A DNA stretch of 64,000 nt from Chlorobiota bacterium (GTDB taxonomy: Bacteria; Bacteroidota; Ignavibacteria; OLB7), in the NCBI GenBank assembly GCA_016788565.1, contig JAEUSP010000063.1:71919-135918 (forward strand), read 5' to 3'. Position 1 is the first letter of the stretch, and every line of letters begins with the position of its first letter. Under the pieces are notes generated by a model. It did no database searches, was not told where the DNA came from, and saw only the letters and a program-made list of their open reading frames with translations. Positions 2,330 to 52,584 of the stretch are shown piece after piece. The translations under genes and the position numbers were made by a program.

Positions 2330-4267
2330 ATGAATCATCAATCGGCGCGGCGGCGGTTGTTCAACCGCAAGTTCAAGCTGTGGTTTTACGAGCGGCAGAT
2401 AAAAGAGGTTGAAGGACCTCACGGACAAGAAGGGCAACATCACCAACACCCCTGGTACAAAGTGATGTGCCTGACCGGTGTGGATTACTTCTCAACGCTT
2501 GGCTATCAACCTGGCATTGCGTTCCTTGCTGCTGGGTTCCTTTCGCCAATTGCAACCCTGATCCTAATCCTGCTGACGCTGTTCGGCGCGCTTCCGATTT
2601 ACAAGCGGGTTGCCGCGGCAAGCCCCCATGGCGAAGGCTCCATTTCGATGTTGGAAAACCTGCTTTCCCGCTGGAAGGGGAAGCTGTTTGTGTTGGTGCT
2701 GCTGGGGTTTGTGGCAACGGATTTCATCATCACCATCACCCTTTCGGCAGCCGATGCCACTGCGCACATTATCGAAAACCCGTTTGCCCCGCATTGGCTT
2801 GAGCATCCGGTGATTGTCACGCTGGTGCTGGTAACACTGCTTGGCGCGGTGTTCCTGAAAGGCTTCAAGGAAGCCATTGGAATGGCGGTGTTTCTGGTGG
2901 TGGCGTACCTGTTCCTGAACCTGATTGTGGTCAGCTACGGCATCTACGAAGTTGCCACCCATGCCACCGTGCTAAGCGATTGGACCAGCCACCTGTTTGA
3001 AACTCACGGCAATCCCTGGATGATGATCGGCCTTTCGCTGATCCTGTTCCCAAAACTTGCGCTTGGATTGTCCGGGTTCGAGACCGGCGTGGCGGTGATG
3101 CCACTGGTGAAAGGGGAAGATGGCGACACCTACAAAAAACCAACAGGGCGAATCCACAACACCCACAAACTGCTGATGTACGCAGCGTTGATTATGAGTG
3201 TGATGTTGCTGACCAGCAGCATCGTCACCACAACGCTGATCCCCCCCCAGGAATTCCAAGCTGGCGGCCAAGCCAACGGGCGCGCGCTGGCGTACTTGGC
3301 CCATAAATTTTTTGGCGATGGCTTCGGGACGCTCTACGACGTCAGCACCATTGCCATTCTCTGGTTCGCGGGCGCGTCGGCAATGGCGGGGCTGCTGAAC
3401 ATTGTTCCGCGCTACCTTCCGCGCTACGGCATGGCCCCGGAATGGGCGCGCGCCACCCGCCCGCTGGTGCTGGTTTATACCCTGATCGCTTTTGCCGTTA
3501 CCATCATTTTTAATGCCGACGTGAACGCGCAAGGGGGCGCGTATGCCACCGGCGTGTTGGTGCTGATGAGTTCCGCCGCGATTGCCGTCACGCTCTCCGT
3601 CTGGAAAAAAGGGAAAATCCGTTGGGCGTTTTTTCTGATCTCGCTGGTGTTTGGCTACACCACCATCGTCAATATCATCGAACGCCCCGAAGGCTTGAAA
3701 ATCGCTTCGTTCTTCATTCTTGCAATCGTCCTAAGCTCCCTCGTCTCCCGCGTGTTGCGCTCCACCGAACTTCGTGTTGAAGGGATTGAGCTGGACGATG
3801 CCGCAAGAAAGATCATCGAGGAGCTACGCGATGGTGATATCCGAGTTATCGCCAACCGCCGCGACCGTGGTGACGTTGAGGAATACCGATTTAAGGAGCA
3901 GGAAAAACGCGCCAACAATCATATTCCCGAAGATGACCCCGTGCTGTTTTTCGAGGTGATGCCCGGGGACGCTTCGGAGTTCACCGGAAAAATTAAAGTG
4001 AAAGGGAAGAAGATCGGGGAGTTCTCTGTGCTTCGCTGCCAAGCCCCTGCGGTGCCAAACGCCATTGCTGCGTTCCTGCTGCACGTTCGGAACAAAACCG
4101 GCAAAATCCCTCACGTCTATTTTGGCTGGACCGAAGGGAACCCTTTCAGCTACGTGCTTCGCTACATTGCCTTCGGCGAAGGGGACACCGCGCCAGTAAC
4201 CCACGAAGTGCTGCGCCAAGCCGAACACAACCCAAAACGCCGGCCCGCAGTGCATGTGGGAGGGTGA
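2330..4267 (+). CDS. Polytopic membrane permease (APC-superfamily-like, about 11-12 TM helices) with a C-terminal soluble domain of about 190 aa
   Basis: Long hydrophobic helices, a GFETG motif and an [17 protein letters not shown] segment. The start is uncertain: 2276 and 2330 (MNHQ) both precede the first TM helix, and an ATG at 2465 lies at the first helix. Confidence 0.5.
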
Positions 4268-4269
4268 TG

Positions 4270-4632
4270 GGAATGCCGAATGTCGAATGCCGAATGTCAA
4301 ATGTCAAATGTCAAATGTCAAATGTCAAATGTCAAATGTCAAATTGGTTCTTGCCACTGACCACTGACCATCAGTGAAGGAAATGCCAAATGTCAAATTG
4401 GTTCTTGCCACTGACCACTGACCACTGACCACTGACCATCAGTGAAGGAAATGCCAAATGTCAAATGTCAAATTGGTTCTTGCCACTGGCCACTGACCAC
4501 TGACCACTGACCATCAGTGAAGGAAATGCCAAATGTCAAATTGGTTCTTGCCACTGGCCACTGGCCACTGACCACTGACCACTGGCCACTGGCCACTGAC
4601 CATCAGTGAAGGAAATGCCAAATGCCGAATGA
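4270..4632. repeat. Composite tandem repeat array: a 65-80 bp unit repeated 4x. Each unit is built from heptamer sub-arrays (aatgtca)n and (ccactga/ccactgg)n separated by conserved cores attggttcttgcc and atcagtgaaggaaatgcc.
   Basis: Direct reading of 4261-4640. The heptamer copy number differs between units. The same unit occurs once, inverted, at 11493..11580. Confidence 0.9.
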
Positions 4633-4682
4633 GGAGAGAGGTGGGGAAATCAATAATCAATCATCAGAAGGAGTTCAGACCA

Positions 4683-5117
4683 ATGAAGCGTTTTCTCACG
4701 TTGCTTCCTGCCGTTTTGGCGCTTGCGCTGTTGTTTGGCGCGTGCGAAGAAAGCCCCACCGACAGCCCCGTTGATGGCAGCTTAACCGCAACCGTCGGCG
4801 GCACATCGTTCAGCGCAACCAGCAGCACGGTGACAGCACGGAAGGCTGGCGGATCCATCATCGTCACCGGCGACAGCGGCAATGGTGTCAGCATCAGCTT
4901 GACCTTTGCGGCCACAACCACCGGGTCGGTTACGGGAACAGCAATCTACACCGCTGGCCCCGGTGCCGACTTCACCTACGCCGCACCACTTGCCCAAGTG
5001 AACGTCACCAAATTGGATAACGCTACGGTGGAAGGAACGTTCTCCTTCACCGGGGTGAACTCCGCCGGAGCCAGCAAATCCGTCACCAACGGCAGCTTCT
5101 CAGCGGACTTCCAGTAA
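4683..5117 (+). CDS. Hypothetical lipoprotein (signal peptide plus lipobox ALLFGAC)
   Basis: MKRFLTLLPAVLALALLFGACEE is followed by a Thr/Ser/Gly-rich beta-type domain. The ORF-track start at 4629 is upstream of the signal peptide. Confidence 0.55.
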   Translation: MKRFLTLLPAVLALALLFGACEESPTDSPVDGSLTATVGGTSFSATSSTVTARKAGGSIIVTGDSGNGVSISLTFAATTTGSVTGTAIYTAGPGADFTYAAPLAQVNVTKLDNATVEGTFSFTGVNSAGASKSVTNGSFSADFQ

Positions 5118-5239
5118 GCAGGCATCGCTGACGCTGCGCGAACAAATTGGGGAGCCAGCAGCAGTGCTGGCTTCCTTTTCTTCCTTCTGCGCTTGCTCAC
5201 TCAAAAAAAACTTCACAACGCTATATCCATCCTCTGCAA

Positions 5240-6031: not shown

Positions 6032-6093
6032 AGAGCCTAGCCTACAACAACACACTGCGTTCTTCTTCGCGCAGTAATCATCATTTCCATCCA

Positions 6094-6136
6094 CCGGTAA
6101 CCGATCACTGGCAACCAATCACCGGCAACCGATTCC
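6094..6136. repeat. 14-nt tandem repeat (ggcaaccgatcacc-like) x3, immediately upstream of the AAC(3) gene
   Basis: ggtaaccgatcact ggcaaccaatcacc ggcaaccgattcc read directly from the sequence. Confidence 0.7.
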
Positions 6137-6960: not shown

Positions 6961-7020
6961 GGGGGGCAGGGCAGGGCTGTTACGTGCTCAAAGAAGGAGT
7001 AGCTTGAGGGCAAAAACTCA

Positions 7021-7130
7021 GGCGACGAATGTTAGGCGACGAATGTCAGGCGACGAATGTCAGGCGAAGCCTGACAGAGAAAGAAAAAATTCCCCTCCAG
7101 TGGAGGGGTGGCAGGCGAAGCCTGACGGGG
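7021..7130. repeat. 14-nt tandem repeat (ggcgacgaatgtca x3) followed by three GC-rich hairpins (gtcaggcGAAgcctgac, cccctccAGTggagggg, caggcGAAgcctg)
   Basis: Read directly. It lies between the AAC(3) stop (6960) and the next + gene (7311). The hairpins may act as a terminator or attenuator, but no clear T-tract follows them. Confidence 0.6.
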
Positions 7131-7310: not shown

Positions 7311-8192
7311 ATGATTGCTTCACCATTCCAACAACCTCACATTCTGGAATCGCCAGAGCATTTTCTTGCAAGAATCGGCACCATCTTCGCTCGGTTCGAT
7401 TCCGCCACCCAGGATTCTGGGAACATCTCCTACGGTGTGCAAATCGGCGGCGAACGCTGGTTTGTGAAAACCGCAGGCTTGGCCGATGATCCCGCCCCGT
7501 TGCTTCCTCACAATCAACGTGTTGAGCTTCTTCGCAACGCCGTGCGGCTGCACCGCTCGGTTGGTGAACATCCCACGCTTCCCAAACTCCATCAGGTCAT
7601 TGAATTTCCCGACGGCCCGTTGCTGGTGTATGGGTGGTGCAATGGTGAGCTTCTTTGGGCACCGCGCCACCTTCGCGATGATCCTGCTTCGGCCTTCCAG
7701 CGGTTTCGCCGTTTGCCAGCCGCCGCAATTTTTTCAGCCCTCGACTCACTCTTCAACCTCCATTTGATTGCTTCGCAGCGTGGATGGATTGCGGTTGATC
7801 TGTACGATGGCTCGCTGTTGTACGACTTCGCAACCTCACAACTCCATGTTGTTGATCTGGATCACTATCATCACGAGCCGTTCCGAAACACGATGGGGCG
7901 GATGTTCGGCTCGGCGCGGTTCATGGCTCCGGAAGAATTGCAGCTGGGGGAGATGATTGACCAACGAACAACGCTTTTCACGCTTGGCCGCATCGCACTC
8001 TGGCTGCTTGGCGACGGAGCCATCAATCCCCAAACATTTCGGGGAACATCGGCCATGCTTCAAGTGTTCCGGCAAGCAACCGAGCCGGAACCTGAGTTGA
8101 GATTTCAGAGTGTGGAGAGTTTTTGGAAGGAATGGAGAAAGGCAATTGAGGGATGTCGGATGTTGAATGCCGAATGTCGAATAGAAGAGTGA
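7311..8192 (+). CDS. Protein-kinase-like (ePK/APH fold) protein with an atypical catalytic loop
   Basis: A Gly-rich loop (SYGVQIGGERW), a VAIK-like WFVKT, catalytic-loop-like IAVDLYDGSLLYD (compare HRDLKPxNLL / HGDLHPGNLL), a DFG-like VVDLDH and an APE motif (FMAPEE). Confidence 0.5.
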   Translation: MIASPFQQPHILESPEHFLARIGTIFARFDSATQDSGNISYGVQIGGERWFVKTAGLADDPAPLLPHNQRVELLRNAVRLHRSVGEHPTLPKLHQVIEFPDGPLLVYGWCNGELLWAPRHLRDDPASAFQRFRRLPAAAIFSALDSLFNLHLIASQRGWIAVDLYDGSLLYDFATSQLHVVDLDHYHHEPFRNTMGRMFGSARFMAPEELQLGEMIDQRTTLFTLGRIALWLLGDGAINPQTFRGTSAMLQVFRQATEPEPELRFQSVESFWKEWRKAIEGCRMLNAECRIEE

Positions 8193-8314
8193 AGAAAGTT
8201 GGAGCTTCCGCCGCACACGGCTCGCTGCTCAAGCTGAAGCCTGTCGAAGTGTGGGCGGAGTTACCGGAATGTCGAATGCAGAGTGTCGAGTTGCTTGGGA
8301 AACTTCAACACACC

Positions 8315-9646
8315 CTACCGCAGCAGATGGAACGGGCGAACAAAGCTCACTCCATCAATCACCATCCGAAGAAACAGTAGCCCCGAAGGCTGCTGCCCCA
8401 GTGCCAACGGCAACTGCTGCCAACCTGCCGGAAACTCTTGCTCCGGTTGCACCAACCATTCTTCGCCAGTAACCGAAACAAGGCTTACACGAACACGCGC
8501 ACGCTGCGGAAGTTGGAACGAAACAACAGGAATCGCCCCCCCAACAACTGGGTTTGGGGAAAGCGCAAACGTGCTGGAAATTTGCGGCACATTTGCAACA
8601 CTGGTCGGATGCCCAACATAGCGCAGCACCCGTCCTAACGAGTGAACAATCACCCCATTGCTCCCAGGTTTATACGAAACACGAAGCCTGAAAAAATCAA
8701 CAGTATCCATGAACTCTCGTCGCCAATGTTTTCCGCCGTCGGTGGTGCGAAGAATTTTCTCCGGGCCAACCGCAAGCCCATGCAGCGAATCGGCAAAGGA
8801 AAGATCGCTAAGGCCCCAGCCGGTAGGGATCAAAGAATCAAGCTGAACATGCCACGTTATGCCACCATCGTAGGTGCGGGCAATAATGTCACGTAGCGCG
8901 CTGGTTGCAGTTTTTCCGCCAGTGGACATCCATCCGTTAAGGCTGTCAATAAAATAAAATCGTGCATCTCTTCCACGGGGAGCATTCCACTGATATGTCC
9001 ATGTTTTTCCTCGGTCGGATGACCGCACGATGATTGTGCTATCCTTCCAATACAAGGAGCAAAGAAAGACAGTAGGGGAAGGAGCAAACACATTTTCAAG
9101 ATAGCCAAATTCCCAATTTGGTGGTCTGGAGATACCAATAGAATCCCAGGTAATTCCACTATCAGCAGTAGCTAATAAATATTCAGGGTAGGTGCCATCC
9201 ACCTGAATAATTCCATATTGTGGAGTGGTCATCTGAATTTTCAGGAGTTTTTGCCACTTTGGAGTAATCACAGAAGTTTTCCAAGTTTTGCCACCATCGG
9301 TGGTGCGGACAAAGGTGCCGCTATCGCCGCAAGCCATAATGATATTTTCCGTTGGATAGGCAACGCTGTGGTAAACCGGCAACCCAATTGGAGATGTATC
9401 TTGCTTATGAATATAGTGCCATTGTAGCCCACCATCAGTTGTCTGGAAAACAGTATTGGAAAATCGAATTCCCCACGATTTTACGAAAACACAACGCAGA
9501 GAATCAAGGCAATCAACATCATTCAGAAAACTACCCTCAGGTATGGAATAATTGATAATGGAAATCCAATCAATTTGCTGGGCGCGAAGTGGTGTTCCCA
9601 TCAGATAGATGCAGCAGCAGAAAAGTAGAATATGGTGAAGTCGCAT
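8315..9646 (-). CDS. Secreted BNR/Asp-box (Ycf48/sortilin-like) beta-propeller protein with a T9SS C-terminal sorting-domain-like tail
   Basis: A signal peptide. Repeated [ST]xDGGxTW Asp-box motifs (TTDGGKTW, SSDRGKTW, TYDGGITW, TTDGGKHW). The C-terminal approximately 80 aa ends ..LLFLRMVIDGVSFVRPFHLLR. Confidence 0.6.
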   Translation of the reverse strand: MRLHHILLFCCCIYLMGTPLRAQQIDWISIINYSIPEGSFLNDVDCLDSLRCVFVKSWGIRFSNTVFQTTDGGLQWHYIHKQDTSPIGLPVYHSVAYPTENIIMACGDSGTFVRTTDGGKTWKTSVITPKWQKLLKIQMTTPQYGIIQVDGTYPEYLLATADSGITWDSIGISRPPNWEFGYLENVFAPSPTVFLCSLYWKDSTIIVRSSDRGKTWTYQWNAPRGRDARFYFIDSLNGWMSTGGKTATSALRDIIARTYDGGITWHVQLDSLIPTGWGLSDLSFADSLHGLAVGPEKILRTTDGGKHWRREFMDTVDFFRLRVSYKPGSNGVIVHSLGRVLRYVGHPTSVANVPQISSTFALSPNPVVGGAIPVVSFQLPQRARVRVSLVSVTGEEWLVQPEQEFPAGWQQLPLALGQQPSGLLFLRMVIDGVSFVRPFHLLR

Positions 9647-9786
9647 AGAGGAAATGATGGATTGTGGTTAAGGATGGTTGGCATCGCGTAGCGTGTGGGG
9701 AATCAGGAAAAAAATAAGAAGGGAAGATGGGGAGCAATACCCCCCATCTTCCTTCCTGTCATTTTTATTCACTGATAATGCTCAGC

Positions 9787-10659
9787 TTATTGTACTACCG
9801 TAAACGACCCGGTAGCAATGGCTGTTGTTTCGGCAACGATGCGGTAGTGGTAAGTTCCAGCAGGGAGTTTGGCAACATTGATTTCCAGCTCCACCGTGCG
9901 ATCGGCATTGGGGGTTCCTTTTGTTGTGGCAACCACTCCGCCTTGCAGGTCAATAATTTCTGCTGTCACCTCCGGTGCTTCCACTGCTGTGCAACGGAGC
10001 CTTGTTTTCCCACTTGCTGGATTGGGAATTACCGTAACCCCTGAGCTTTCTGGCAAAGATTGTGAAAGAGCACGCTTGGCAGCTATGGGGTCGTAGAATG
10101 GGATGTATCCACAAAAGGATTCGCATGGTGGTGTGCAGGTAGTGGTCGTTCCTGTTGAGCCAATCTGCTCAAATGTGACGTTGTCGTTACCATCACGGCA
10201 GAAGCGGTATTCAGCAATACAGCAATCAGCCAAAAATGGGGCACCTGGACAGTGCTGATAATATGGAGGTTTTGTGAGAATGTTGATTAACTCATAACAT
10301 CCCCCAATCAATAATCGCCAATTGGTGACACACTCTCCTTTACTAGGTTGGCAATTGCTTGGCAATTGTTGCCAGTAACGAAGGAAAAGATCAGCAATGG
10401 CAGATTTGAACATATCGCCAGGGGCGCATGTGCAGTTGGGATTATCCATGTCGATTTTTTCAACATAAATATCACAACTTCCGTCGCAATTCCGGGTTCT
10501 GACATAAATTTTGCCTGTGCATCCGTTACAGTGGCCGTAAAGATCGAACCGTACTGGGAATACCGAGACAGCACTCCAAGAATTATCTGGGCAATTTGGA
10601 TCAGGACAAGGATTAGTTTGCGCAATAGTGGTTGGCGTTCCAGCAATTGCTAATACCAT
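9787..10659 (-). CDS. Cys-rich secreted protein of unknown function with a T9SS C-terminal sorting-domain-like tail
   Basis: More than 20 Cys in 290 aa. The C-terminus ends ..KLPAGTYHYRIVAETTAIATGSFTVVQ. The reading frame is open upstream of the listed Met (..KHRARWIICYAAFIMVLAIAG), so a non-ATG start giving a proper signal peptide is likely. Confidence 0.5.
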   Translation of the reverse strand: MVLAIAGTPTTIAQTNPCPDPNCPDNSWSAVSVFPVRFDLYGHCNGCTGKIYVRTRNCDGSCDIYVEKIDMDNPNCTCAPGDMFKSAIADLFLRYWQQLPSNCQPSKGECVTNWRLLIGGCYELINILTKPPYYQHCPGAPFLADCCIAEYRFCRDGNDNVTFEQIGSTGTTTTCTPPCESFCGYIPFYDPIAAKRALSQSLPESSGVTVIPNPASGKTRLRCTAVEAPEVTAEIIDLQGGVVATTKGTPNADRTVELEINVAKLPAGTYHYRIVAETTAIATGSFTVVQ

Positions 10660-10944
10660 GATAAAAGCCGCATAGCAAATAATCCACCGTGCTCGATGCT
10701 TTAGTAACGTGCGGCTGTTACTGGGAACTGGGAACTGGATGGTACTGTGAACATTGGTTCCTCCGATGGGAGTAATGATGAGAGAAAAGTGCGAAAACCA
10801 TTACTGGCAATCGCGTTACATGTGCAAGGTTATAGGAATAGGATCATGGATGCCGACACGCAAAAGTACAATGGGTTATTTGCAGTTGCAAGGGGTGAGA
10901 GCTAAAAATATTTTTTATGGTATTCATTGCTATGTTAATGGCAA

Positions 10945-11487
10945 GTGAAGTTTTGCAGAACGATGCTAAAACCAGAAGAAATCATCATCCGCCGCTACCG
11001 CCCCGGCGACTCCATCGGCCAGATCACAACACTGCTGCATGAAGCCTACGGCCAACTTGCACGGATGGGGTTGCGATTCTTGGCCACCCACCAGGACGAA
11101 GCAACAACTCTGGATCGTATAACCAGCGGGGTTTGTACGTTTGTGGCGCAACGGGGGGAAACGATTGTTGGAACGCTGACGTTGTACGGACCGCATCCCA
11201 CTTCTTCCGCGTTGTGGTATCGCCAGCCAACGGTGTTTCATTTTGGGCAATTTGCGGTTCAGCCGGGGCTGCAACGTAATGGCATCGGGCTGCAAATGCT
11301 GCGGATGGCCGAAGCGGAAGCGCGCAGCGTAGGAGCCACCGAGCTTGCTCTGGACACCGCCGAACCAGCCGAGCATCTCTGCCGTTGGTATCAGCAGCTT
11401 GGGTTCCGGTTTGTTGAGTATGTTCAGTGGGATGTGACCAACTACCGAAGCGTGATTCTTTCTAAACGGCTTATCGGGGAGTGTTGA
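10945..11487 (+). CDS. GNAT-family N-acetyltransferase
   Basis: FGQFAVQPGLQRNGIGLQMLRMAEAEARSVGATELALDT matches the acetyl-CoA-binding core (Q/RxxGxG/A). Confidence 0.75.
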   Translation: MKFCRTMLKPEEIIIRRYRPGDSIGQITTLLHEAYGQLARMGLRFLATHQDEATTLDRITSGVCTFVAQRGETIVGTLTLYGPHPTSSALWYRQPTVFHFGQFAVQPGLQRNGIGLQMLRMAEAEARSVGATELALDTAEPAEHLCRWYQQLGFRFVEYVQWDVTNYRSVILSKRLIGEC

Positions 11488-11492
11488 ATGCC

Positions 11493-11580
11493 TTCACTGG
11501 TGGTCATTGGTCATTAGTCATTAGTCATTGGTCATTTGCAAGAACCAATTCGGCATTCGGCATTCGACATTTCGACATTC
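11493..11580. repeat. Single inverted copy of the composite heptamer element seen at 4270-4632
   Basis: The reverse complement reads (gaatgyc)n-attggttcttgc-(aatgacc)n-accagtgaaggca. It shares the cores attggttcttgc and cagtgaagg. The heptamer variant is TTGGTCA. Confidence 0.75.
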
Positions 11581-13634: not shown

Positions 13635-15464
13635 ATGAAGCCTTTCTCCATCATGTTCTGGATACTCCTATCCGTTTGCCTGTTTCATCAATCTTCATTT
13701 TCCCAAGAAGCGGATATTGGGCGAAAGGAGGAGCATTTTTTTTATGTTGGGTATAACGGAATGGAGTTTTACTTAACGTCCAGAAGTACGGTTGAGCAGA
13801 CTTATTATTCAAAACGCTCAACCGAGTACAATACCTTCTATATTCACGAGAATTTTTTTGATAGAGTAAAGTCTATCAAGGGAGAATATGATGATGATGA
13901 TATTAATGAACGTTCAATATCAGCGATAAACCCCGAAAATGAAGATGTCTTTCTATCAGATTACCGCATCCATAAAATTTCTTTTCCTGACAAAATTGAG
14001 GTTGGAAAGTCAGGTTTTTATAGATATGAGAGGGAGTATAAGGATATAGCCTACTTCCCAATAATGTTCGTCCCTAACCTGAATAGAGTTGACAGTTACG
14101 CAATCATTGTCGAGCATCCTGATGGCGTTCAAGTAGATTTTGATATTTATTTCACGGCTAAAAACATCCCCTATACTCTAGATACTACTGATCCCGAACG
14201 AACAATTCTGAACTTTAGTGCCATTGAGCGTTTCGATAAGCTGCCCTACTACCCATTCGATGGGTTTCATGCCGCAATTTTTACTTCTGTACGCTATCAA
14301 GGAAATATCAATCCAGTAACTCCTGCGGATTTTTTGCGGTGGTATTCTAATCTTCTTGACTCCTCGATTTATTCGATAAACTACAGCGACCCTGCGCTAC
14401 ATTCTGCGATTACTACTGCGTCCAGCAACCGCGACAAGGTAAAAATGATCTATGATTACGTGCGAAAAAATGTGCGTTACATTGCCGAGGAGCAAAATTT
14501 CAACGCCATTGTCCCTCGCAGCCCAACAACAGTATTTACACGGAAGTATGGCGATTGCAAAGACAAAGCATTCCTAATTTCGGCATTAGCAAAAAAATAT
14601 GGAGTGACAGTGTACCCGGTTCTGGTGTCAACAACCCCCGAACCTCCGTTTCAAGAAACGCATCCAACGCAGTTTAACCATGTGATCTGTTTGTACGAAG
14701 AAGGGAACGAACGAATATATTTTGATCCAACCAGCATGTATTCTGAGTTTGGAGACTTGCCACAAGGTGATATGCAGGCGCAAGGGTTAATTTTAAACAA
14801 GTTAAAGCCTGAACAGGTGATTGTACCACATCAATTTTCCGATCCTACACTTGAGATCAGTATAGAGGGTGACATAGAACAACCAAAGCAAGCAAAAGCA
14901 CGGGTGATTTTGCGAAACGATTACTTATCAACCGCATTGCGGGCTAAAGCTGAACTTACTGGTATTGAATTAGAAAACACGCTATCTAATTTAGTCACGC
15001 ATCATTTTCAAAAAATATCGTTCGATTACTTTACGTTCGAGTCAGAATCAGATAGCCAGATTGTTTTTACTGCCAACGCTGACATGAAAGACTTTATTAT
15101 TGCTTCCACAGAAAAGCGTTATATCCCCCAAATGCCGTTTTCGATGATAGATAACAGCATCTTGAAACGTGAGGCAGATAGCCAAGCAATTTACCTTGAG
15201 GAGGTTACATCGCTAAAACTCGATGTCTCACTTCGTACGCCTGCCTTGAAAATTCAGTCTAAAACGGCAGAGTTTGGCGATCCATCCGTTGCATCCTTTA
15301 AAGGGGAAGCGAGGCAAGGTGATAATGGGAATATCAACCTTTCTTATTCGCTACAGAATGACAGGAAAACACTAACAGGCAATGCACGCGCTGCCTTTGT
15401 TAGCTTTGCCAAAGATTTTCTCAAAAGCAAAAAAAACATGTTCACTATAACCCAAAACCAATAA
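13635..15464 (+). CDS. Secreted DUF3857/transglutaminase-like cysteine-protease-domain protein (low-GC island gene 1)
   Basis: A signal peptide. Transglutaminase-core-like KYGDCKDKAFLISALAKKYGVTVYPVLV (GxCxDxAxLxxALxRxxGIPAR pattern). AT-rich coding sequence. Confidence 0.6.
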   Translation: MKPFSIMFWILLSVCLFHQSSFSQEADIGRKEEHFFYVGYNGMEFYLTSRSTVEQTYYSKRSTEYNTFYIHENFFDRVKSIKGEYDDDDINERSISAINPENEDVFLSDYRIHKISFPDKIEVGKSGFYRYEREYKDIAYFPIMFVPNLNRVDSYAIIVEHPDGVQVDFDIYFTAKNIPYTLDTTDPERTILNFSAIERFDKLPYYPFDGFHAAIFTSVRYQGNINPVTPADFLRWYSNLLDSSIYSINYSDPALHSAITTASSNRDKVKMIYDYVRKNVRYIAEEQNFNAIVPRSPTTVFTRKYGDCKDKAFLISALAKKYGVTVYPVLVSTTPEPPFQETHPTQFNHVICLYEEGNERIYFDPTSMYSEFGDLPQGDMQAQGLILNKLKPEQVIVPHQFSDPTLEISIEGDIEQPKQAKARVILRNDYLSTALRAKAELTGIELENTLSNLVTHHFQKISFDYFTFESESDSQIVFTANADMKDFIIASTEKRYIPQMPFSMIDNSILKREADSQAIYLEEVTSLKLDVSLRTPALKIQSKTAEFGDPSVASFKGEARQGDNGNINLSYSLQNDRKTLTGNARAAFVSFAKDFLKSKKNMFTITQNQ

Positions 15465-17395
15465 TGAAACGAATCTACCTGCTAATCGCTGCTGCCGCAA
15501 TCTGCCTTGCCGGATGCAATATCTCCTATCGAACAATGTACTTTACCGAGTTCAAACCTGAAGATATAAACGTGGATAGCGTAAATATCCAAGAGTATGA
15601 AAAGAAGTATGGTAAGTATGATGGCGTTATCCTTCATAATGATTATTCGCTTGAACAGGCTTCAACGACCTTGCGTTCTTCTTATACACTTGTAAGAATG
15701 CGGTATATGGTTTTAAATCCTAACGCTCAATGGCTTACTACACTTAATCTGAATGTTGGCAGTGGAAGCCTTAATGAGGCATACGTGTACATTATTTATC
15801 CAAATGGTCAAAGAAAGAAGTTCGGGATTGATGATTTTATTTATGAGGTAAATAATGGAAAAGGAGTATATAAATTTGCTTATCCAGAAATAGTGAAGGG
15901 AACAATTATTGAAGAATCTTATGAAATAGAGCGATCTCTTGATTTCGTTATTAATCATAGCGCGGTGCTGCAATTCTCAATTCCTTGCGAATCAAATCAT
16001 TTTCAATGCGGTTCCCACTCACTTTGGGCTGTAAAATTAAAAACTGATAGCACGAAATTACCAGGACTTACTGTTGTAGATGATGAAGACTACAATAAAC
16101 AGATCGTCGAGTATCGTGGAACTAATATCCCTGCATACGTTGATGAACCATATTCCAGCTTGCAGCAAGAAAATATTCGAAAAATTGAATTTATGTACAC
16201 AACCCTAGCAGCAAGAAGGGCATATTGGTCGTCATCTTCTACTTGGGAAGAAATATCAAACAGATATGCTGAATGGGTGGTGCGTGAAGAACCTGACGAG
16301 GATTTAGCTGAAGAAGTTCAGGAAATTATCAAATCTGCTTCTGATGATGAAGCAAAACTACGTTCTATTGCCTCGCATGTTCAGCAGAACTACAAGCTTG
16401 TTAATTGGAGCAACAATGATATTGATGTCGTTTTTGAAAAAAAACGCGGAAGTGATGATGAGCTTTGCGCGCTAACACGGGAAATGCTTCAGGCCGCCAA
16501 CATCCCAGCAGAAATGGTTCATGTGCACTCTGCTTATGATGGCCAATTTGTTGAGTCCTATGTGAACATTTACGAAATCCGTAATCCTGCTGTATTGGTA
16601 ACCATTAAAGGAAATCAGTACATGGTGTTCCCTTATGTTAAAAATTACCCTGTTGATCTTATTCCACAACATCTTCAGGAACAGAAGGCTTTAGTGGTTC
16701 AGGAAGGTGAAAAGGCCAAATTCGTAACCACGCCAGCGGGCAGTATGGCGAACAACACCGTCACCGAACAGTATAAATTGAATATCAATGATGAAGGAGA
16801 AATTGAGGTGCAGGAAGAGAAAACTCTAACTGGGCAGGGCGCGTATCGGATACGTGAAATGCTAACAGAGATGAAAGCCGATGAGATTGATAAAGTTCTA
16901 AAAGAACTGCTAACCTACTCCGAAGGTGATGTCAAGATCGTCTCCCACGAAATAATTAACCAAAGTGATTACACCAAACCCCTAATCATAAAACTGGTGT
17001 ACAACATTGATAACCTTGTGACAGTGACACCAGATGAGGTGATCTTTCAGACAGGAGGGCTGTTCTCGCCATCCTCAAATGTGAAGACGAAGATTGATAC
17101 CGAGGAACGAGTAAACCCAATACGGATTTATTCGGATGAAAAGTATATTAAAAATATCAGCATTGAGTTCCCCAAAAACTGGGCACTGACCTCTACGCTG
17201 AAAAATCTTGAGAAGGAGAATGAGTTCGGTAAAATCAAGGGAGTTTATACTGTAAATCCTGGGAACATTCAAGTTGCGCAGGAGCGATTGCTACTAAAAT
17301 CCCACAAACCGAAGGAAATGATTGATGAGCTTCTGGAAATCACCGGAAGGAAGTCGCAGCTGTATATCCCTACAATGATTTTTAAGATCAATTAG
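15464..17395 (+). CDS. Lipoprotein paralog with a transglutaminase-like domain (low-GC island gene 2)
   Basis: Lipobox LAGCN. GSDDELCALTREMLQAANIPAEMVHV matches the transglutaminase-like core. The start overlaps the stop of the upstream gene (taATGa). Confidence 0.55.
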   Translation: MKRIYLLIAAAAICLAGCNISYRTMYFTEFKPEDINVDSVNIQEYEKKYGKYDGVILHNDYSLEQASTTLRSSYTLVRMRYMVLNPNAQWLTTLNLNVGSGSLNEAYVYIIYPNGQRKKFGIDDFIYEVNNGKGVYKFAYPEIVKGTIIEESYEIERSLDFVINHSAVLQFSIPCESNHFQCGSHSLWAVKLKTDSTKLPGLTVVDDEDYNKQIVEYRGTNIPAYVDEPYSSLQQENIRKIEFMYTTLAARRAYWSSSSTWEEISNRYAEWVVREEPDEDLAEEVQEIIKSASDDEAKLRSIASHVQQNYKLVNWSNNDIDVVFEKKRGSDDELCALTREMLQAANIPAEMVHVHSAYDGQFVESYVNIYEIRNPAVLVTIKGNQYMVFPYVKNYPVDLIPQHLQEQKALVVQEGEKAKFVTTPAGSMANNTVTEQYKLNINDEGEIEVQEEKTLTGQGAYRIREMLTEMKADEIDKVLKELLTYSEGDVKIVSHEIINQSDYTKPLIIKLVYNIDNLVTVTPDEVIFQTGGLFSPSSNVKTKIDTEERVNPIRIYSDEKYIKNISIEFPKNWALTSTLKNLEKENEFGKIKGVYTVNPGNIQVAQERLLLKSHKPKEMIDELLEITGRKSQLYIPTMIFKIN

Positions 17396-23848: not shown

Positions 23849-24310
23849 AGTTGTGATTCCGATTAATCGTGTAACGTTGGCATGGCGGCATAGCTGCCGC
23901 ATGGGAATGTGCCGAACAAGGCATCCCAAATGATACTTTTTGCGTGGATTGAAATGGATGAAGTGTGGTACATCCGGCAAAGGCGCGTGGCAGAGAGGTA
24001 TCAGCACGCCATGGGGGGAAGCACAGACTTCATGCAGGGAATGGCTCCCTGCCTATGATTGTGTTTTTGCTTACAAGAGCACAAGAAGCGTGAGCTGCGT
24101 ATTGCTGCGTTTGGTAGCTTCGTGTCGTCATCGCGAACACCAGCATAACGGATCAGCGTAGGCAAACATCACACTCGCCAGAATTGTTCGCGCATCGGTT
24201 GGCGATATTTCTCGGCCTTGATATATAAAAGAACCTTTGAGGTGGGCAAAGGTCACACTCAAGAAGGTTAATTTCTGTTCATCTGTCCACGTACTCACTT
24301 CGCAACAGCG

Positions 24311-24754
24311 ATGCCAATGAAACGAGTTTCAACAACACACACCATCGCCGCACTGCTGATCTCCCTGTTTATTGGGGCTTGCGGTTCATCTCAATCCACA
24401 ATCACGCCAGCGGGAAAACCACCATTCGATGGCGTTCAATCGGTGCGGACCGAGCTGTACTTCGGAATGCGAAAACGGGACAACGGAGTGGTGGGGCTGC
24501 GCGATTGGCGCAAGTTTCTGGATAGCCTTATCACCCCACGATTTCCCAGCGGACTAACCGTGATTGATGCCAACGGCCAATACCAAATGGCCAATGGAAC
24601 CATCAAGCCGGAAATGACCAAAGTTGTTCTGCTACTCCACGACGACACCCCCGCGCAAAGCAACGCCATTGACTCCATCCGAAAGGAGTATTGCGCCATG
24701 TACGACCAGGAGTCGGTGTTGCGCGTAAGCCAGTACGTGACGGTTTCTTTTTGA
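24311..24754 (+). CDS. Small hypothetical lipoprotein
   Basis: A signal peptide plus lipobox (LLISLFIGACGSS). 147 aa. No catalytic motif recognised. Confidence 0.5.
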   Translation: MPMKRVSTTHTIAALLISLFIGACGSSQSTITPAGKPPFDGVQSVRTELYFGMRKRDNGVVGLRDWRKFLDSLITPRFPSGLTVIDANGQYQMANGTIKPEMTKVVLLLHDDTPAQSNAIDSIRKEYCAMYDQESVLRVSQYVTVSF

Positions 24755-27048: not shown

Positions 27049-27200
27049 GTGATAGATATACTCCAACGAAAGTGGTTTGCGACAAAACCCGCGCTGTCAT
27101 TCCCAGTTTACCCCGACCAGTCGGGGCGAAAGCGGGAGCCATAGGCCTGCGAAGCGCATCCATGCTGTCTATTTCCGCAAACCACTTTGTTCGGAGTAAA
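27049..27200. mobile_element. MITE-like repeat, diverged copy 3 (152 bp)
   Basis: TIRs tatactccaacgaaagtggtttgcg / cgcaaaccactttgttcggagtaaa. The central hairpin motif ..gtcattcc..cgaaagcgggag is interrupted by a 23-bp secondary hairpin (cagtttaccccgaccagtcgggg). Confidence 0.6.
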
Positions 27201-27716: not shown

Positions 27717-27842
27717 CTGAAACCTTGTTAGAACATTTTGGATGATTTCTGCAACCGTACAGAATCACCGCCGTGTTGGGTTTGTATGTTGTGACTTCAA
27801 TATGGCCAGGAGAAACAGGGAGTGCAGTGCGAAAGCACTCAT

Positions 27843-27898
27843 ATATTCGGAGCAAATTGGTTTGCGAAATTCTACTTTGTTCGGAGTAAAAACATCAT
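27843..27898. mobile_element. MITE-like repeat, minimal or solo-TIR copy 4 (about 56 bp)
   Basis: tatattcggagcaaattggtttgcgaaa (compare the reverse complement of the copy-1 right TIR) joined to tttgttcggagtaaa (compare the copy-3 right end). Confidence 0.45.
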
Positions 27899-35400: not shown

Positions 35401-35457
35401 TGTGAGTGAGTTTGTTGCTTGGGGACTATTTATGGTTAGCGTGCGAAAATCTCCCTC

Positions 35458-35506
35458 CGCTCATGCTGAGCCCCGTCGAAGTATGAGCGGAGGCCACCGA
35501 ACCTCT
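35458..35506. repeat. Short hairpin repeat element (ccgctcat-N18-atgagcgg plus ggccaccgaacc), also present inverted at 49829..49878
   Basis: cgctcatgctgagccccgtcgaagtatgagcg is nearly identical to the reverse complement of 49841-49878. Confidence 0.6.
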
Positions 35507-36226: not shown

Positions 36227-36285
36227 ACGAAAAGGGAAGGAACGATTTCACCGTAAATCACCAACGCCCAACCCCAAGCTCTAAC

Positions 36286-36340
36286 AACCGATCCCCGACA
36301 ACCGATCCCCGACTCCCGATCCCCGACAACCGACAACCAA
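36286..36340. repeat. 14-nt tandem repeat (caaccgatccccga x3-4) immediately upstream of the aminotransferase start
   Basis: caaccgatccccga caaccgatccccga ctcccgatccccga caaccgacaacc read directly. Confidence 0.7.
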
Positions 36341-39511: not shown

Positions 39512-42004
39512 GTGAACATGGCAAAAAAAACGACCACTGTTTCAGCTATTGTTTCCGATACCGCCTCGGTTCCCCCAGTCTCTTCTGGGGATTGCGACAC
39601 CACCACCACCACCACCACATTCCAATTCCCGTTCAACACGGTTCTCAGCTTCGCACCGCTGATTGAGTACGCCAACCAGAATTTCGGCGGGGAACGCTCC
39701 AGCCTTCGCTCGCTGGTTGCTGAACTGAACCAGCGGTTATCGGCATCGCCGCAGCTGCAAGAACCGATCGAGGACCTTTCACTGCTTGACCAGCACCGCG
39801 AAAGCGTGGATTGGCTGATGTCCATGGTCTTCCCGCCAGCGTTGTGGGATCAAGATTATTCCATGGCGATTGCCCCCTTCAAACTTGCCCCGTTTTACTC
39901 CACCCCAGCGTTTCGGCGGACATTTCTTCAGGGGGGGAACGGTGAAAAATTAGCTCAGGAATTTGCCAACGAAGCCAAGATTCGCTACCGTGCGATTGCT
40001 GCGTATGTGAAAATTGCCCGGCAGTTTTTCAACTTCACGATTGACTTTCCTGGCCTATCGCTAAAGGCTTCTGCATCCGATCCAGAAAGTGGCACAAGTC
40101 GGTACTACCGGTTTACGTTCGATATGCGGTTCATCCGCTTTGTTCCAACCGGACCGCTTCCGGAACTCACCGACCAGCAACGCCAGCAAATCCTCTACAA
40201 TCTTACCGATCTGGAGACTTGGCAGTCCATTATTCCCCCCGACCTGTTCCGGATTGAAGGCTTTGTGCTGATTAACGCCACCGATATCAGCGACAATGAG
40301 TTTGTTGGCGTGCTGGAACGTGAGCTTGTCGAAAGTAGCAGCAGCATCCTGGCGATGGAAGGTTTCCAACGGCTTCAGCAGATTATCCGGGCGTATCTGC
40401 GGCAGAAAGATTTGGTGCTGGGATTGGTGGCAATTGATGGCGATACCATCATGGTGCTGAACTACGGCGCACAGTTGCCAAATGGCCAACCCAAAACTTG
40501 CTTGCTCAATCAATCCTATCACTTCCTCCGCAGCCAGCTTGCCGGATCCACCATCGAGCAGGCGTTGCTGAACGGCAAACCGCAAGTGATTGAAGATGTG
40601 CTTCAGCTTCCCACACCACGCGCAGCCGGCGATGAAGCGCTGATCGGAAAGGGATTCCGCAGCGCGTACTTTGCGCCGCTGAACTACAACGGCGCGTTGA
40701 TTGGCGCTCTGAACATTTACTCACCCAACGCAGGCGACCTGACCGAACTGAACACCCTGAAACTGACCAACCTTCTCCCGCTATTTTCGATGGTGGTTCG
40801 CCGCAGTTTGGCGGATATGGAGAACCAGGTGCAAGCGGTGATTCGCCAGCAGTACACGGCGGTGCATCCGTCGGTGGAGTGGAAGTTCCGCGAAGCCGCA
40901 AAAGGGTTTCTCACCCGCCAGGGAATGGTTGCCGAAAACCAGATTGAGCCGATTGTTTTCCACGATGTTTACCCACTGTTCAGCGTCAGCGATATTCGCG
41001 GGTCATCGGATCACCGCAACCAAGCCATTCAGCAAGATTTAATCGAGCAACTCAGCCTAGCTTGGGGGGTGTTGGATTCCGCACGCGCCGCGCGCCAGCT
41101 TCCAATTCTGGATCACCTTCTGTTCCGGGTTCACGATAAAATTGCCCACATCGAATCAGGGTTGCATTCCGGTGATGAAGCCGGGGTGTTGGATTTTTTG
41201 CGCCACGAAGTTGAGTCGTTGTTTAGCCACATCGGCGATTTTGGCCCAGCCGTTGCCCAGCGGATTGATGACTACAACGCAACGCTGGACCCTGAAATCA
41301 AAGCGGTCTATCAGAAGCGAAAAGAGTTTGAGGAGAGCGTCACGGCAATCAATCGGGTGATTGCTGCATTTGTGGAATCGGAGGAGGAGCGGGCGCAGGG
41401 GATGTTCCCCCACTACTTTGAAAAACACCAAACCGACGGCGTTGATTTTGGCGTGTATGTTGGCCAATCGTTGGTGAACGACCGCCAGTTCAGCGACCTG
41501 TACCTTCGCAATTTGCGGCTGTGGCAACTGCTGGTGATGTGCGGCGCGGCGCGCTTGGCCAACGAAGTAAAATCCACCCTCACCGTCCCGTTGGACACCA
41601 CGCATCTTGTGCTGGTGCAAACCACACCGCTCTCGATCAGCTATCGTTTGGATGAAAAGCAGTTTGATGTTGATGGAGCCTACAACATCCGCTACGCAAT
41701 TATGAAAAAGCGGATTGACAAAGCGGAAATTAAGGGAACGGGGGAGCGGCTAACCCAGCCCGGGAAATTGGCCATCGTCTATTCCCAACCGCGCGAGGCG
41801 CAGGAGTACCGGCAGTATCTGGAATACCTGGTTGCCAGCCGGATGATTGAGCCAGAGATTGAAGACCTTGACCTTGACGACCTGCAAGGCGTTCACGGCC
41901 TGAAGGCGTTACGGGTGAACGTGGTGCTGCAACGTGCCGCCGGTGATGTTGAAGTTCCAGAAGCCATCGAGCGTGCGATTCGGGAGTTTTCGGAAGGGGG
42001 GTGA
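39512..42004 (+). CDS. Large cytoplasmic GAF-domain-containing protein of unknown function
   Basis: A GAF-like segment (..LVLGLVAIDGDTIMVLNYG ... EALIGKGFRSAYFAPLNYNGALIGALNIYSPNAGDL). No kinase, HD or GGDEF motif recognised. The last 12 codons lie in a 62-bp sequence that is duplicated at 44543. Confidence 0.45.
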   Translation: MNMAKKTTTVSAIVSDTASVPPVSSGDCDTTTTTTTFQFPFNTVLSFAPLIEYANQNFGGERSSLRSLVAELNQRLSASPQLQEPIEDLSLLDQHRESVDWLMSMVFPPALWDQDYSMAIAPFKLAPFYSTPAFRRTFLQGGNGEKLAQEFANEAKIRYRAIAAYVKIARQFFNFTIDFPGLSLKASASDPESGTSRYYRFTFDMRFIRFVPTGPLPELTDQQRQQILYNLTDLETWQSIIPPDLFRIEGFVLINATDISDNEFVGVLERELVESSSSILAMEGFQRLQQIIRAYLRQKDLVLGLVAIDGDTIMVLNYGAQLPNGQPKTCLLNQSYHFLRSQLAGSTIEQALLNGKPQVIEDVLQLPTPRAAGDEALIGKGFRSAYFAPLNYNGALIGALNIYSPNAGDLTELNTLKLTNLLPLFSMVVRRSLADMENQVQAVIRQQYTAVHPSVEWKFREAAKGFLTRQGMVAENQIEPIVFHDVYPLFSVSDIRGSSDHRNQAIQQDLIEQLSLAWGVLDSARAARQLPILDHLLFRVHDKIAHIESGLHSGDEAGVLDFLRHEVESLFSHIGDFGPAVAQRIDDYNATLDPEIKAVYQKRKEFEESVTAINRVIAAFVESEEERAQGMFPHYFEKHQTDGVDFGVYVGQSLVNDRQFSDLYLRNLRLWQLLVMCGAARLANEVKSTLTVPLDTTHLVLVQTTPLSISYRLDEKQFDVDGAYNIRYAIMKKRIDKAEIKGTGERLTQPGKLAIVYSQPREAQEYRQYLEYLVASRMIEPEIEDLDLDDLQGVHGLKALRVNVVLQRAAGDVEVPEAIERAIREFSEGG

Positions 42005-43591: not shown

Positions 43592-44544
43592 GTACCAACA
43601 CAAAGCGCGATCCTCTGAAGGAAGCTGAGCACATCCTTGCTTTGTTAGGGCTGCCTGTGGTGCAGCAGAACGAACGCTCCGCGCTTTGCCTGCTCTCTCT
43701 GTTGGACCTTCGTCCGGGTAAGGCTTGGAACAAGGCAAGGAACCCACTACTGGGGATCACCCCGATGATGGACTGGATGCGCAAGCACTACAACAAGGAT
43801 TACGCGCCAAACACCCGCGAAACAGTGCGTCGCCAGACCATGCACCAGTTTGTGGCTGCTGGGATTGCCCTGTACAATCCCGACAATCCTGACCGTCCGG
43901 TGAACAGCCCAAAAGCTGCTTACCAGATAGAGCCTGCCACACTTGCTTTGCTACGCAGTTTTGGCACCAAGCAATGGCACAGTAATCTGGTAAATTACTT
44001 GGCGATGCGCCAGACGCTGGTTGCCCGTTACGCCAAAGAACGCCAGCAAAGCCGCGTGCCGGTCAAAATTGCACCGGGTAAACAGATTACCCTAAGCCCC
44101 GGTAAACATAGCGAGCTGATTCGGGCAATCATCGAAGACTTCGCCCCACGTTTTGCGCCGGATAGTCTGCTGGTGTATGCCGGTGATACTGGCGACAAAT
44201 GGGGGTACTTCGATGCGGAGCTATTCCAAGAGTTGGGACTTACGGTTGATCCCCACGGCAAAATGCCCGATGTGGTGTTGTATTACGCACACAAAAACTG
44301 GTTGCTACTGGTGGAGTCCGTCACCAGCCACGGGGCAGTTGATGGGAAACGCCATGCAGAGCTTACCAAACTGTTTGCTGGATCACGGGTTGGTTTGGTG
44401 TATGTCACTGCTTTCCCAAACCGAGCTACTCTCAGCCGCTACTTGGGCGAAATTGCATGGGAAACTGAGGTGTGGATTGCTGATGCGCCTTCTCACCTGA
44501 TTCATTTTAATGGATCGCGCTTCTTGGGGCCATATCCTGCATGA
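43588..44544 (+). CDS. Type II restriction endonuclease, BsuBI/PstI family (probable)
   Basis: 318 aa, translationally coupled to the methyltransferase in the same M-then-R order as BsuBI. The family assignment is from overall length and organisation plus remembered similarity, not a search. Confidence 0.55.
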   Translation: MSTNTKRDPLKEAEHILALLGLPVVQQNERSALCLLSLLDLRPGKAWNKARNPLLGITPMMDWMRKHYNKDYAPNTRETVRRQTMHQFVAAGIALYNPDNPDRPVNSPKAAYQIEPATLALLRSFGTKQWHSNLVNYLAMRQTLVARYAKERQQSRVPVKIAPGKQITLSPGKHSELIRAIIEDFAPRFAPDSLLVYAGDTGDKWGYFDAELFQELGLTVDPHGKMPDVVLYYAHKNWLLLVESVTSHGAVDGKRHAELTKLFAGSRVGLVYVTAFPNRATLSRYLGEIAWETEVWIADAPSHLIHFNGSRFLGPYPA

Positions 44545-44606: not shown

Positions 44607-44618
44607 TCCCAGATATGT

Positions 44619-44734
44619 TATACTCCAAACAGAGTGGTTTGCGAAAAACTCAATCACTGTCATTCCCGCGAAAGCGGGAATCCATAGCGCACCTGGCTGA
44701 GTAGATTTTCGCAAGTCAATTTGCGCCGAGTATA
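44619..44734. mobile_element. MITE-like repeat, copy 2 (116 bp), immediately after the RM cassette
   Basis: About 95% identical to 202..317, with the same TIRs and GAAA hairpin. Confidence 0.7.
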
Positions 44735-49589: not shown

Positions 49590-49645
49590 GTGGTGGTGAT
49601 TGGTGATTGGTGATTGGTGATGGTCAGTAGTCAGTAGTCGGTGGG
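49590..49645. repeat. Heptamer tandem array (ggtgatt)x3-(ggtcagta)x2
   Basis: Read directly from the divergent intergenic region. Confidence 0.8.
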
Positions 49646-49690
49646 GGCTTCTGTTTTGTATTACTCCGTGCTTCAGCGCGGAGATTTCGC

Positions 49691-52400: not shown

Positions 52401-52584
52401 ATGCCGCAGGTGTGTGAGCAGTGAACGCTATAGTTTCTATTTCCTACTTCCTATTTCCTCCCCTCCCCCCACCCGGGATGCAATTTGGAAACCTTCACCC
52501 GTGAAGGATTCGGCAAGTTTGCGGCGGTGTTCGGCAACGGGGTTGCCGCGCCACATCTTCATTCAGGACAATCACAACGCCTTC

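Follow-up and report, generated by a model that had tools for sequence, protein, structure and literature searches.

Here we describe an intergenic repeat in a stretch of 64,000 nucleotides (nt) from a Chlorobiota bacterium (contig JAEUSP010000063.1), which we refer to as the window. The repeat, designated locus 1, is located between an open reading frame (ORF) of 645 amino acids (aa) and a gene for a DUF6252 lipoprotein-like protein, and it is a non-coding higher-order tandem repeat made from heptamer microsatellites. The array mutates in steps of one heptamer or one whole unit, far more quickly than substitutions build up in its flanks, and such arrays are abundant in the lineage of the window and missing in more distant relatives. 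We consider it probable that locus 1 represents a young, lineage-specific, non-coding mosaic minisatellite of the kind of the intergenic heptamer short tandemly repeated repetitive (STRR) sequences or long simple sequence repeats (SSRs), and that it has no dedicated function.

The architecture of locus 1 was defined by parsing the sequence into arrays of the heptamers RAATGYC (A) and CACTGRC (B) and two linkers, C1 and C2 (Table 1). A four-unit composite of heptamer sub-arrays with varying copy number had been proposed in an earlier note on this DNA, and this description was borne out by our parse and by Tandem Repeats Finder (TRF), which reported period-7 arrays nested within a higher-order repeat whose period is 68 or 75 nt (score 379, 3.2 copies). 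The first A array begins 4 nt past the TGA stop codon (4265-4267) of the 645-aa ORF, for which no Pfam match was found, and the short A arrays that follow the four C2 copies contain 2, 3, 2 and 2 heptamers. Each C2 linker includes one inverted B heptamer (TCAGTG), and the B heptamer itself is the reverse complement of GTGGTCA-type heptamers that are present elsewhere in the window. The array occupies a 415-nt spacer in a run of co-directional + strand genes, and an array-less relative keeps a recognisable counterpart of the leader at 4634-4682, with substitutions and small indels. The core of C1, ATTGGTTCTTGC, occurs four times on the + strand at locus 1 and once on the - strand at 11538-11549; when up to one mismatch was allowed, six matches were found in the window against 0.48 expected, and none of 100 shuffles reached six. 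The proteins of the window are those of a metagenome-assembled genome (MAG) that is labelled Chlorobi bacterium at NCBI (MBL79877xx), and their remoter homologues are named Kapabacteria, Kapaibacterium, Bacteroidetes or Rhodothermales.

Table 1. Positions of the repeat modules, their component parts and the flanking features. Positions are those of the window unless another contig is named.
Feature	Position	Strand	Description
Locus 1 array	4271-4633	+	four composite units (RAATGYC)n – AAATTGGTTCTTGC – (CACTGRC)n – CATCAGTGAAGG
First A array	4271-4340	+	ten heptamers: GAATGCC/GAATGTC x4, then AAATGTC x6
Linker C1 (AAATTGGTTCTTGC)	4341-4354, 4395-4408, 4470-4483, 4538-4551	+	four copies
B array, unit 1	4355-4368	+	CACTGAC x2
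B arrays, units 2-4	4409-4436 (x4), 4484-4511 (x4), 4552-4600 (x7)	+	x7 array with CACTGGC and CACTGAC mixed
Linker C2 (CATCAGTGAAGG)	4369-4380, 4437-4448, 4512-4523, 4601-4612	+	four copies
Higher-order repeat	4369-4612	+	three C2-to-C2 periods of 68, 75 and 89 nt, each C2, A(2-3), C1, B(4-7)
Terminal A heptamers	4613-4633	+	AAATGCC AAATGCC GAATGAG
Leader	4634-4682	+	49 nt, carries GAAGGAG ribosome-binding site
Upstream flanking gene	2330-4267	+	645-aa ORF, ends in GGAGGGTGA
Downstream flanking gene	4683-5117	+	144-aa DUF6252 lipoprotein-like protein
Terminator-like hairpin	5149-5176		3' of the DUF6252 gene
Locus 2 module	11486-11580	-	single diverged copy, order A-C1-B-C2 as at locus 1
Locus 2 GAATGCC	overlaps stop codon 11485-11487	read on +	
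Locus 2 C2, reverse complement	11491-11499	read on +	CCTTCACTG
Locus 2 B heptamers	11500-11534	read on +	five, GTGGTCA/TTGGTCA/TTAGTCA
Locus 2 C1, reverse complement	11538-11551	read on +	GCAAGAACCAATTC
Locus 2 A heptamers	11552-11580	read on +	GGCATTC/GACATTT
Locus 3 module A-C1-B	L056 19955-20092 (ena:ERZ27258503:k141_408339)		~8.4 kb left of window position 1
Second composite family	49594-49740, 49885-49975, 52264-52402, 53917-54068	+	(nnnGTCA)n – TTTCCGGCTTTGNCTTCAT – TCACTCTTCCCANCTCACTCTTCACTCTTCG

Allelic variation and dispersed copies of the module

The earlier note had suggested that copy numbers be compared across strains, and a comparison of assemblies revealed that the array does vary between populations. 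The assembly collection lists the downstream lipoprotein, with identical sequence, in 88 blocks, and most of the contigs stop within the array. Among the contigs of the window lineage that span it, at least four kinds of allele could be distinguished, namely A10 with four units in the window, A11 with four units in L001, A13 with four units in L007, and A13 with three units in L003 and L014, from which exactly unit 3 (75 nt) is gone. The first A array counts 10, 11, at least 12, or 13 heptamers in the other assemblies, and the flanks are 100% identical over 4.2 kb in the window, L001 and L014. In a ~99%-identical lineage (GCA_963170195.1) the spacer measures 617 nt and contains eight units, and partial contigs of this lineage show additional variants. 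In a lineage at 88-92% identity (L019-L026, with GCA_020850315.1 and seven other contigs), the spacer measures ~100 nt, its only heptamers are GAACGTC GAATGTC GAATGAC, and both the linkers and the B array are absent from it. The note had also named an assembly artefact as a possibility, and most short-read contigs indeed break in the array, with the gene beginning at position 89 in six of them. Against this, at least six independent assemblies span the array with the same unit order and internal A/G pattern, the four-unit layout and the A/G pattern of the B arrays being identical in L001, L004 and L007, and we therefore attach next to no weight to an artefact.

A single diverged copy of the module is present in inverted orientation at 11.5 kb (locus 2). 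It is 82% complementary to the units of locus 1 over 57 nt and fills a 104-nt spacer that leads from a GNAT acetyltransferase gene to an amidohydrolase gene. Since the genes are on the + strand at both loci, the orientation of the module relative to the genes is opposite at locus 1 and locus 2. The earlier note had reported this inverted unit as one that keeps both cores and uses a different heptamer. The A-C1-B-C2 order is indeed the same, but the other details need correction: TTGGTCA differs by a single base from the reverse complement of CCACTGA (TCATTGG versus TCAGTGG), and of the second core only CAGTGAAGG is common to the two loci, the full 16-mer CAGTGAAGGAAATGCC being absent from locus 2. 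A third copy (locus 3) was found by extending the search 10 kb past the left edge of the window on a 242-kb metagenome contig. It reads (GAATGYC)4 – AAATTGATTCTTGC – AACTGAC, TAACGAC, TAATGAC x4, CACTGAC x4, where AAATTGATTCTTGC is a variant of C1, and it has no C2. Locus 3 combines B heptamers of the locus 1 type and the locus 2 type (CACTGAC and TAATGAC) in one array, sits in a divergent spacer flanked by genes for a major facilitator superfamily (MFS) transporter and a glycosyltransferase, and has the same sequence in another assembly (L057). The module thus forms a small dispersed family with three copies in ~75 kb and in both orientations, so that the claim of a defined and re-used element stands, with two copies in the window and the third just outside. 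A degenerate C1 candidate at 10751-10764, beside (ACTGGGA)2.7, was dismissed as an unconvincing match.

The history of the two loci in the window was approached through their relatives. Locus 2 is identical in five assemblies of the window lineage, and in the 99% lineage it carries one substitution and is longer by two A heptamers. L048, a relative at 86% identity, has (TTGGTCA)5 directly past the GNAT stop codon in different flanks, with CGAAGAACTTCTTCGC in the place of C1 and without C2. The next relative out (L058, 89% amino-acid identity), in which the GNAT-amidohydrolase synteny is kept, has no array, and no real period-7 arrays were detected in 13-15 kb of two relatives at 71-74% (L059 and L060). 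Judged from these sequence comparisons, the array at locus 2 appears to be older than that at locus 1, and locus 1 most likely received the module secondarily and was amplified afterwards. On this evidence, the arrays are both young and lineage-specific. Scans for the exact pattern ATTGGTTCTTGC-N{10,40}-CAGTGAAGG in the GTDB representative genomes and the JGI metagenomes gave three and five matches, respectively, none with adjoining heptamer arrays. These matches are chance-like, and the exact cores therefore appear to be private to the window lineage, although a variant like the linker of locus 3, ATTGATTCTTGC, escapes scans of this type.

The dispersal of the module could be taken to mean that A-C1-B(-C2) is a non-autonomous mobile element, similar to miniature inverted-repeat transposable elements (MITEs) or to REPINs (paired repetitive extragenic palindromic, REP, sequences), which a transposase moves in trans into heptamer arrays. 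In addition to the three copies in both orientations, this idea draws on the fact that the module at locus 1 is located inside a tract of A heptamers that exists module-free in a relative, with direct A heptamers flanking the module. However, terminal inverted repeats are absent, as is a REP-type hairpin, the part content differs among the copies in that C2 is missing from locus 3, and no transposase was seen beside any copy. Nor does a REP-associated tyrosine (RAYT) or Y1 transposase appear among the genes called in the window and the left extension, which are the sampled part of the genome. Moreover, a sequence homologous to C1 is found in situ at locus 2 of the relative, which points to a local origin followed by recombination. 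We therefore regard a mobile element as improbable.

Three nested mutational processes would shape the minisatellite that we favour. Its building blocks are the RAATGYC and CACTGRC microsatellites, placed in opposite orientation and joined by the linkers C1 and C2. The gain or loss of single heptamers that is seen in the allele series would be due to slipped-strand mispairing, and the changes in unit number (0, 3, 4 and 8), which are likewise seen, to unequal recombination or slippage between units of 68-89 nt. Ectopic recombination or gene conversion, primed by A-type or B-type heptamers that different spacers already had in common, may copy A-C1-B to new spacers, and recombination between spacers would explain both the third copy and the inverted one at 11.5 kb.

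Heptamer arrays across the window and tests for function

The genomic sample that we analyzed consists of the 64-kb window and ~10 kb beyond its left edge. Among perfect tandem arrays with three or more copies, nine in the window have period 7 and one has period 14; there are none of periods 5, 6 or 8-13 in the window, and none in Markov shuffles. Of the 30 TRF rows with period 7 or 14, 26 are intergenic, while intergenic DNA makes up 13.7% of the window. With the approximate gene map that we used for counting spacers, arrays of period 7 or 14 are present in 12 of 35. One period-7 row, at 24569, has low identity and lies within an apparent unannotated ORF in the spacer 24008-24690.

Several tests addressed the possibility that locus 1 acts through RNA, for instance as a structured 5' leader or small RNA (sRNA), as the earlier note had proposed, or as an array of hairpins that stabilise mRNA. 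A 6-bp hairpin, CACUGA-CCA-UCAGUG, can form in every unit, and the array is probably transcribed along with the operon. This hairpin is the only recurrent one, but two of its six pairs are broken at locus 2 with no compensation, and the module is reversed there with respect to the genes. Compared with shuffled sequences the fold of the whole array has no excess stability (z = +0.92 on the + strand and -0.40 on the - strand), single units score between z = -0.4 and -1.7, and an Rfam search of the array returned no match at the gathering score or at E<=1. A structured RNA is thus very improbable. The scan for tRNA and transfer-messenger RNA (tmRNA) found none, and no terminator-like sites were detected within the array. 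A coding role is contradicted by five to eight stop codons in every one of the six frames; the array is not within an ORF. Two further candidates were rejected. A Rho-utilisation site would need untranslated RNA that is C-rich and G-poor, and the array, of unremarkable base composition, contains 26% C and 21% G. In a clustered regularly interspaced short palindromic repeat (CRISPR) array the spacers are unique, whereas the "spacers" of locus 1 are heptamer runs of 14-49 nt that have low complexity and are common to the units; no cas domains were found among the neighbouring genes.

The variation in length also raises the question whether locus 1 is a contingency locus, at which copy number switches or tunes the DUF6252 gene and the co-directional genes through intercistronic or 5'-untranslated region (5'-UTR) length. 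The length polymorphism is real and rapid among otherwise identical genomes, the array ends 50 nt upstream of a surface-type lipoprotein gene that has a good ribosome-binding site, and arrays are confined to spacers with a gene start. In addition, the array is probably transcribed within an operon, since no terminator is present between the 645-aa ORF and the DUF6252 gene. On the other hand, there is no promoter-like site in or beside the array (none of the sigma-70 type in 3800-5200, in a scan that may not cover the promoter type of this phylum), and the steps of 7 nt and 75 nt impose no phase constraint on length. The DUF6252 gene of the relative functions with a spacer of ~100 nt, and similar arrays in twelve spacers stand beside unrelated housekeeping genes (UbiE, UbiX, BatA). 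Furthermore, the module is inverted at locus 2 and occupies a divergent spacer at locus 3, and these arrangements, together with the array-less orthologues of the relatives, also speak against the connection with signal-peptide genes that the earlier note had drawn. Taken as a whole, a contingency locus seems unlikely, though it deserves some weight.

A different role would be that of a protein-binding array, in which the iterated heptamers serve as sites for a nucleoid-associated or regulatory protein, much as in the bacterial interspersed mosaic elements (BIMEs) of E. coli, which have the same mosaic logic and bind IHF and gyrase (PMC2817692, PMC3333891). Nearly all heptamer types of the window have a GTCA or GTGA core in common (AATGTCA, GTGGTCA, TTGGTCA, GTTGTCA, GTGGTGA and AGAGTGA, the complement of TCACTCT), inverted arrays face each other across a linker in several spacers (4271-4368, 11500-11580 and 53917-54065), and the linkers are conserved among the dispersed copies. 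However, no candidate protein emerged, a spacing of 7 bp does not match the helical phase of DNA, and the copy number is unconstrained. As the arrays are missing in relatives at 70-89% protein identity, their distribution implies no conserved regulon. Protein binding is accordingly a doubtful explanation for locus 1.

A number of points weigh against the view that locus 1 is a minisatellite without a dedicated function. Each of the 12 spacers with an array precedes one gene start or more, and arrays are missing from all six convergent spacers; by our own calculation the hypergeometric probability of this restriction is ~0.06, and it could hint at a role at the 5' end. A purely mutational model does not predict the core that nearly all heptamers share. 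At locus 2, five B heptamers were kept in three lineages, which could reflect constraint. The gene-conversion route of spread is one that we infer, and short-read assemblies may have collapsed some alleles, for which reason the differences in unit number are less secure than the heptamer counts. Finally, a signal that escapes detection does not prove a lack of function. The shared core, the restriction to gene starts and the stable five heptamers at locus 2 are what keeps a functional or trans-acting account at a low probability. In the trans-acting version, to which we give little weight, the A-C1-B module and the common heptamer cores, that of TTGGTCA included, would be the mark of a system such as a sequence-specific DNA-binding or strand-transfer protein, which would recognise heptamer arrays and would seed modules in spacers or copy them from one spacer to another. 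If this were true, it would explain both the period of seven and the occurrence of near-identical heptamers in Cyanobacteria, Beggiatoaceae, Bacteroidota and a Chlorobi-like lineage, and the arrays would be traces of some mobile or repeat-generating mechanism as yet undescribed and not of passive polymerase slippage.

On balance, a dedicated cellular function of the locus 1 minisatellite is most likely lacking, and its sole direct effect is most likely that the spacer between the 645-aa ORF and the DUF6252 gene is lengthened from ~100 nt to 360-620 nt. The finding by itself reveals no new function. Its value lies in a clean natural series at one locus (0, 3, 4 and 8 units; 10-13 heptamers), partly on identical flanks, that captures the birth of a higher-order repeat from microsatellites in a bacterial spacer. 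It should also be noted that the arrays are break points of short-read assemblies, and that they would serve as sensitive strain markers.

Further repeats and genes of the window

Besides the module family, the window contains a second composite family (Table 1), which can also be written as (nnnGTCA/GTGA)n – linker TTTCCGGCTTTGNCTTCAT – TYTCACTCTTCCCANCTCACTCTTCACTCTTCG. Its members always have the + orientation and are upstream of + strand genes (BatA/VWA, UbiE and a 407-aa ORF). The + strand RNA of 53960-54070 could form a long G-U-rich hairpin (z = -2.0). A GTGGTCA array of 14.7 copies is the same in the one other assembly that spans it. The sequence GGRGGGTGA makes up the last nine bases of four + strand genes (4259-4267, 41996-42004, 52245-52253 and 53903-53911), and in three of these four cases a heptamer array follows 4-13 nt past the gene end. 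The sequence GGGGGTGA occurs 11 times against 2.7 expected, with 10 of the 11 occurrences on the + strand. UbiX is 5 aa longer here than in some members of its cluster and has a G-rich tail, from which it follows that repeat sequence may supply or reshape the 3' ends of genes. A-type heptamers (GRATGYC) are also found at 8153-8182 and 8261-8295, within the 3' end of the ORF 7311-8192 and just past it, and are followed by the C2-like sequence AGAGTGAAGAAAG; this ORF encodes 293 aa here and 284 aa in most cluster members. Tandem arrays with 14-nt (2x7) units are present at 6092-6130, 7018-7067, 36284-36338 and 62034-62097 (units CACCGGCAACCAAT, TCAGGCGACGAATG, ACAACCGATCCCCG and TCACTCTCGTGCAC). 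They are intergenic except for the array at 62034-62097, which overlaps a gene end, and the array at 7018 is one unit shorter in the 99% lineage (L052).

Other repeats in the window are of different kinds. A dispersed, internally palindromic repeat of 117 nt (201-317 and 44618-44734, 95% identity; partial copies at 27057-27086 and 27842-27876) resembles a MITE or REP element and has no relation to the heptamers. A 50-nt repeat, CCCTCCGCTCATGCTGAGCCCCGTCGAAG..., occurs in inverted orientation at 35453-35502 and 49831-49880 (92% complementary), and a relative of it lies in a spacer of the 88-92% relative (L048, ~925-960). Long tandem repeats of 39, 147 and 156 nt at 59950-60760 lie inside the large - strand ORF 59957-62047 (696 aa, strong AT skew of -0.32), which presumably encodes a repeat-rich protein.

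With regard to gene content, a low-GC island at 13635-17395 (0.40-0.45 versus ~0.55) harbours two neighbouring genes for paralogous transglutaminase-core proteins (609 and 643 aa) and may have been acquired horizontally. The corresponding region of L048 has neither of these genes, nor two - strand genes at 8315-10659. A restriction-modification pair at 42215-44544 consists of an Eco57I-type methyltransferase, the ORF of which measures 458 or 494 aa depending on the assembly, and a BsuBI/PstI-type endonuclease. For the gene at the right edge (62166-63512), the look-up gave no record, and no publication turned up for the ENA project PRJEB19935.

Comparison with known repeat systems

The arrays resemble the STRR sequences of Calothrix, Nostoc and Anabaena in that they have a period of seven, are intergenic, and occur at many loci with several heptamer types per genome. 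TTGGTCA, which is present at 11507-11534, is reportedly one of the STRR heptamers. For Calothrix PCC 7601, three tandem heptanucleotides are on record as cited in PMC4692102. The earlier note had remarked upon STRR-like repeats in a genome with a type IX secretion system (T9SS), and this holds good, as heptamer arrays are accompanied by a neighbouring gene that encodes a Por_Secre_tail (T9SS) domain. There are two differences. The host of an STRR in the strict sense is a heterocystous cyanobacterium, whereas the window belongs to a Chlorobi/Kapabacteria-like MAG, and two arrays with their linkers have been amplified here as a higher-order unit of 68-89 nt.

A close parallel is provided by TAACTGA and the mixed heptamer assemblages of Beggiatoaceae, Cyanobacteria and five Bacteroidetes (MacGregor 2015, PMC4679880). 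In both cases the repeats are intergenic, heptamers are mixed within a spacer, indels between strains come in steps of 7 nt, contigs break off in arrays, and near relatives are without them; near-identical assemblages at more than one locus, as described for Elizabethkingia, are likewise seen here. The GTCAGTT and GTCAGTA heptamers of the window are one to two bases away from the reverse complement of TAACTGA. Nevertheless, the heptamers differ, the arrays of the window have no preference for a forward position right before the start codon, and PMC4679880 does not report a composite unit amplified in tandem.

The contingency loci of other bacteria, such as the AGAT repeats in the Moraxella uspA2 5'-UTR and the Haemophilus SSRs, are phase-variable according to the accounts in PMC4679880 and PMC12721329. 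Like locus 1, they have a hypermutable tandem repeat that precedes a gene for a surface protein, but at locus 1 neither a promoter (by scan) nor a reading frame is affected, and similar arrays lie beside housekeeping genes. The BIMEs of E. coli (PMC2817692, PMC3333891) are likewise mosaics of alternating orientation with conserved linkers and variable tandem iteration that are dispersed in spacers. Such alternation is evident at locus 1, where the A (..GTCA) and B (TGAC..) arrays point at each other from either side of C1 and C2 closes the unit, with 3-8 iterations. However, the blocks are heptamer microsatellites here and not palindromes of 20-40 nt; no inverted repeats were found within the array, and no significant hairpin, the fold scores being at the level of shuffles. 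Because the palindrome and stem-loop features of BIMEs and REPs are absent, the resemblance is one of architecture only.

Heptamers are the most abundant long SSRs in many bacteria and have been ascribed to polymerase slippage (Mrazek 2007, as reported in PMC4679880 and PMC4692102). In Xanthomonas and Nostoc, GGGAATC/GGGGAYT arrays vary extensively between close relatives and are sometimes inverted (Rehm 2015, PMC4692102). The over-representation of heptamers, the intergenic position, the variable length and the occasional inversion are common to that class and the window, but the repeats of the window are not G-rich, have no G-quadruplex potential and form a mosaic with linkers. The excess of period 7, the position in spacers at multiple loci and the 7-nt steps between strains, all of which were observed here, place the arrays among the intergenic heptamer SSRs, and this class of repeats is thereby extended to a Chlorobi/Kapabacteria-like lineage.

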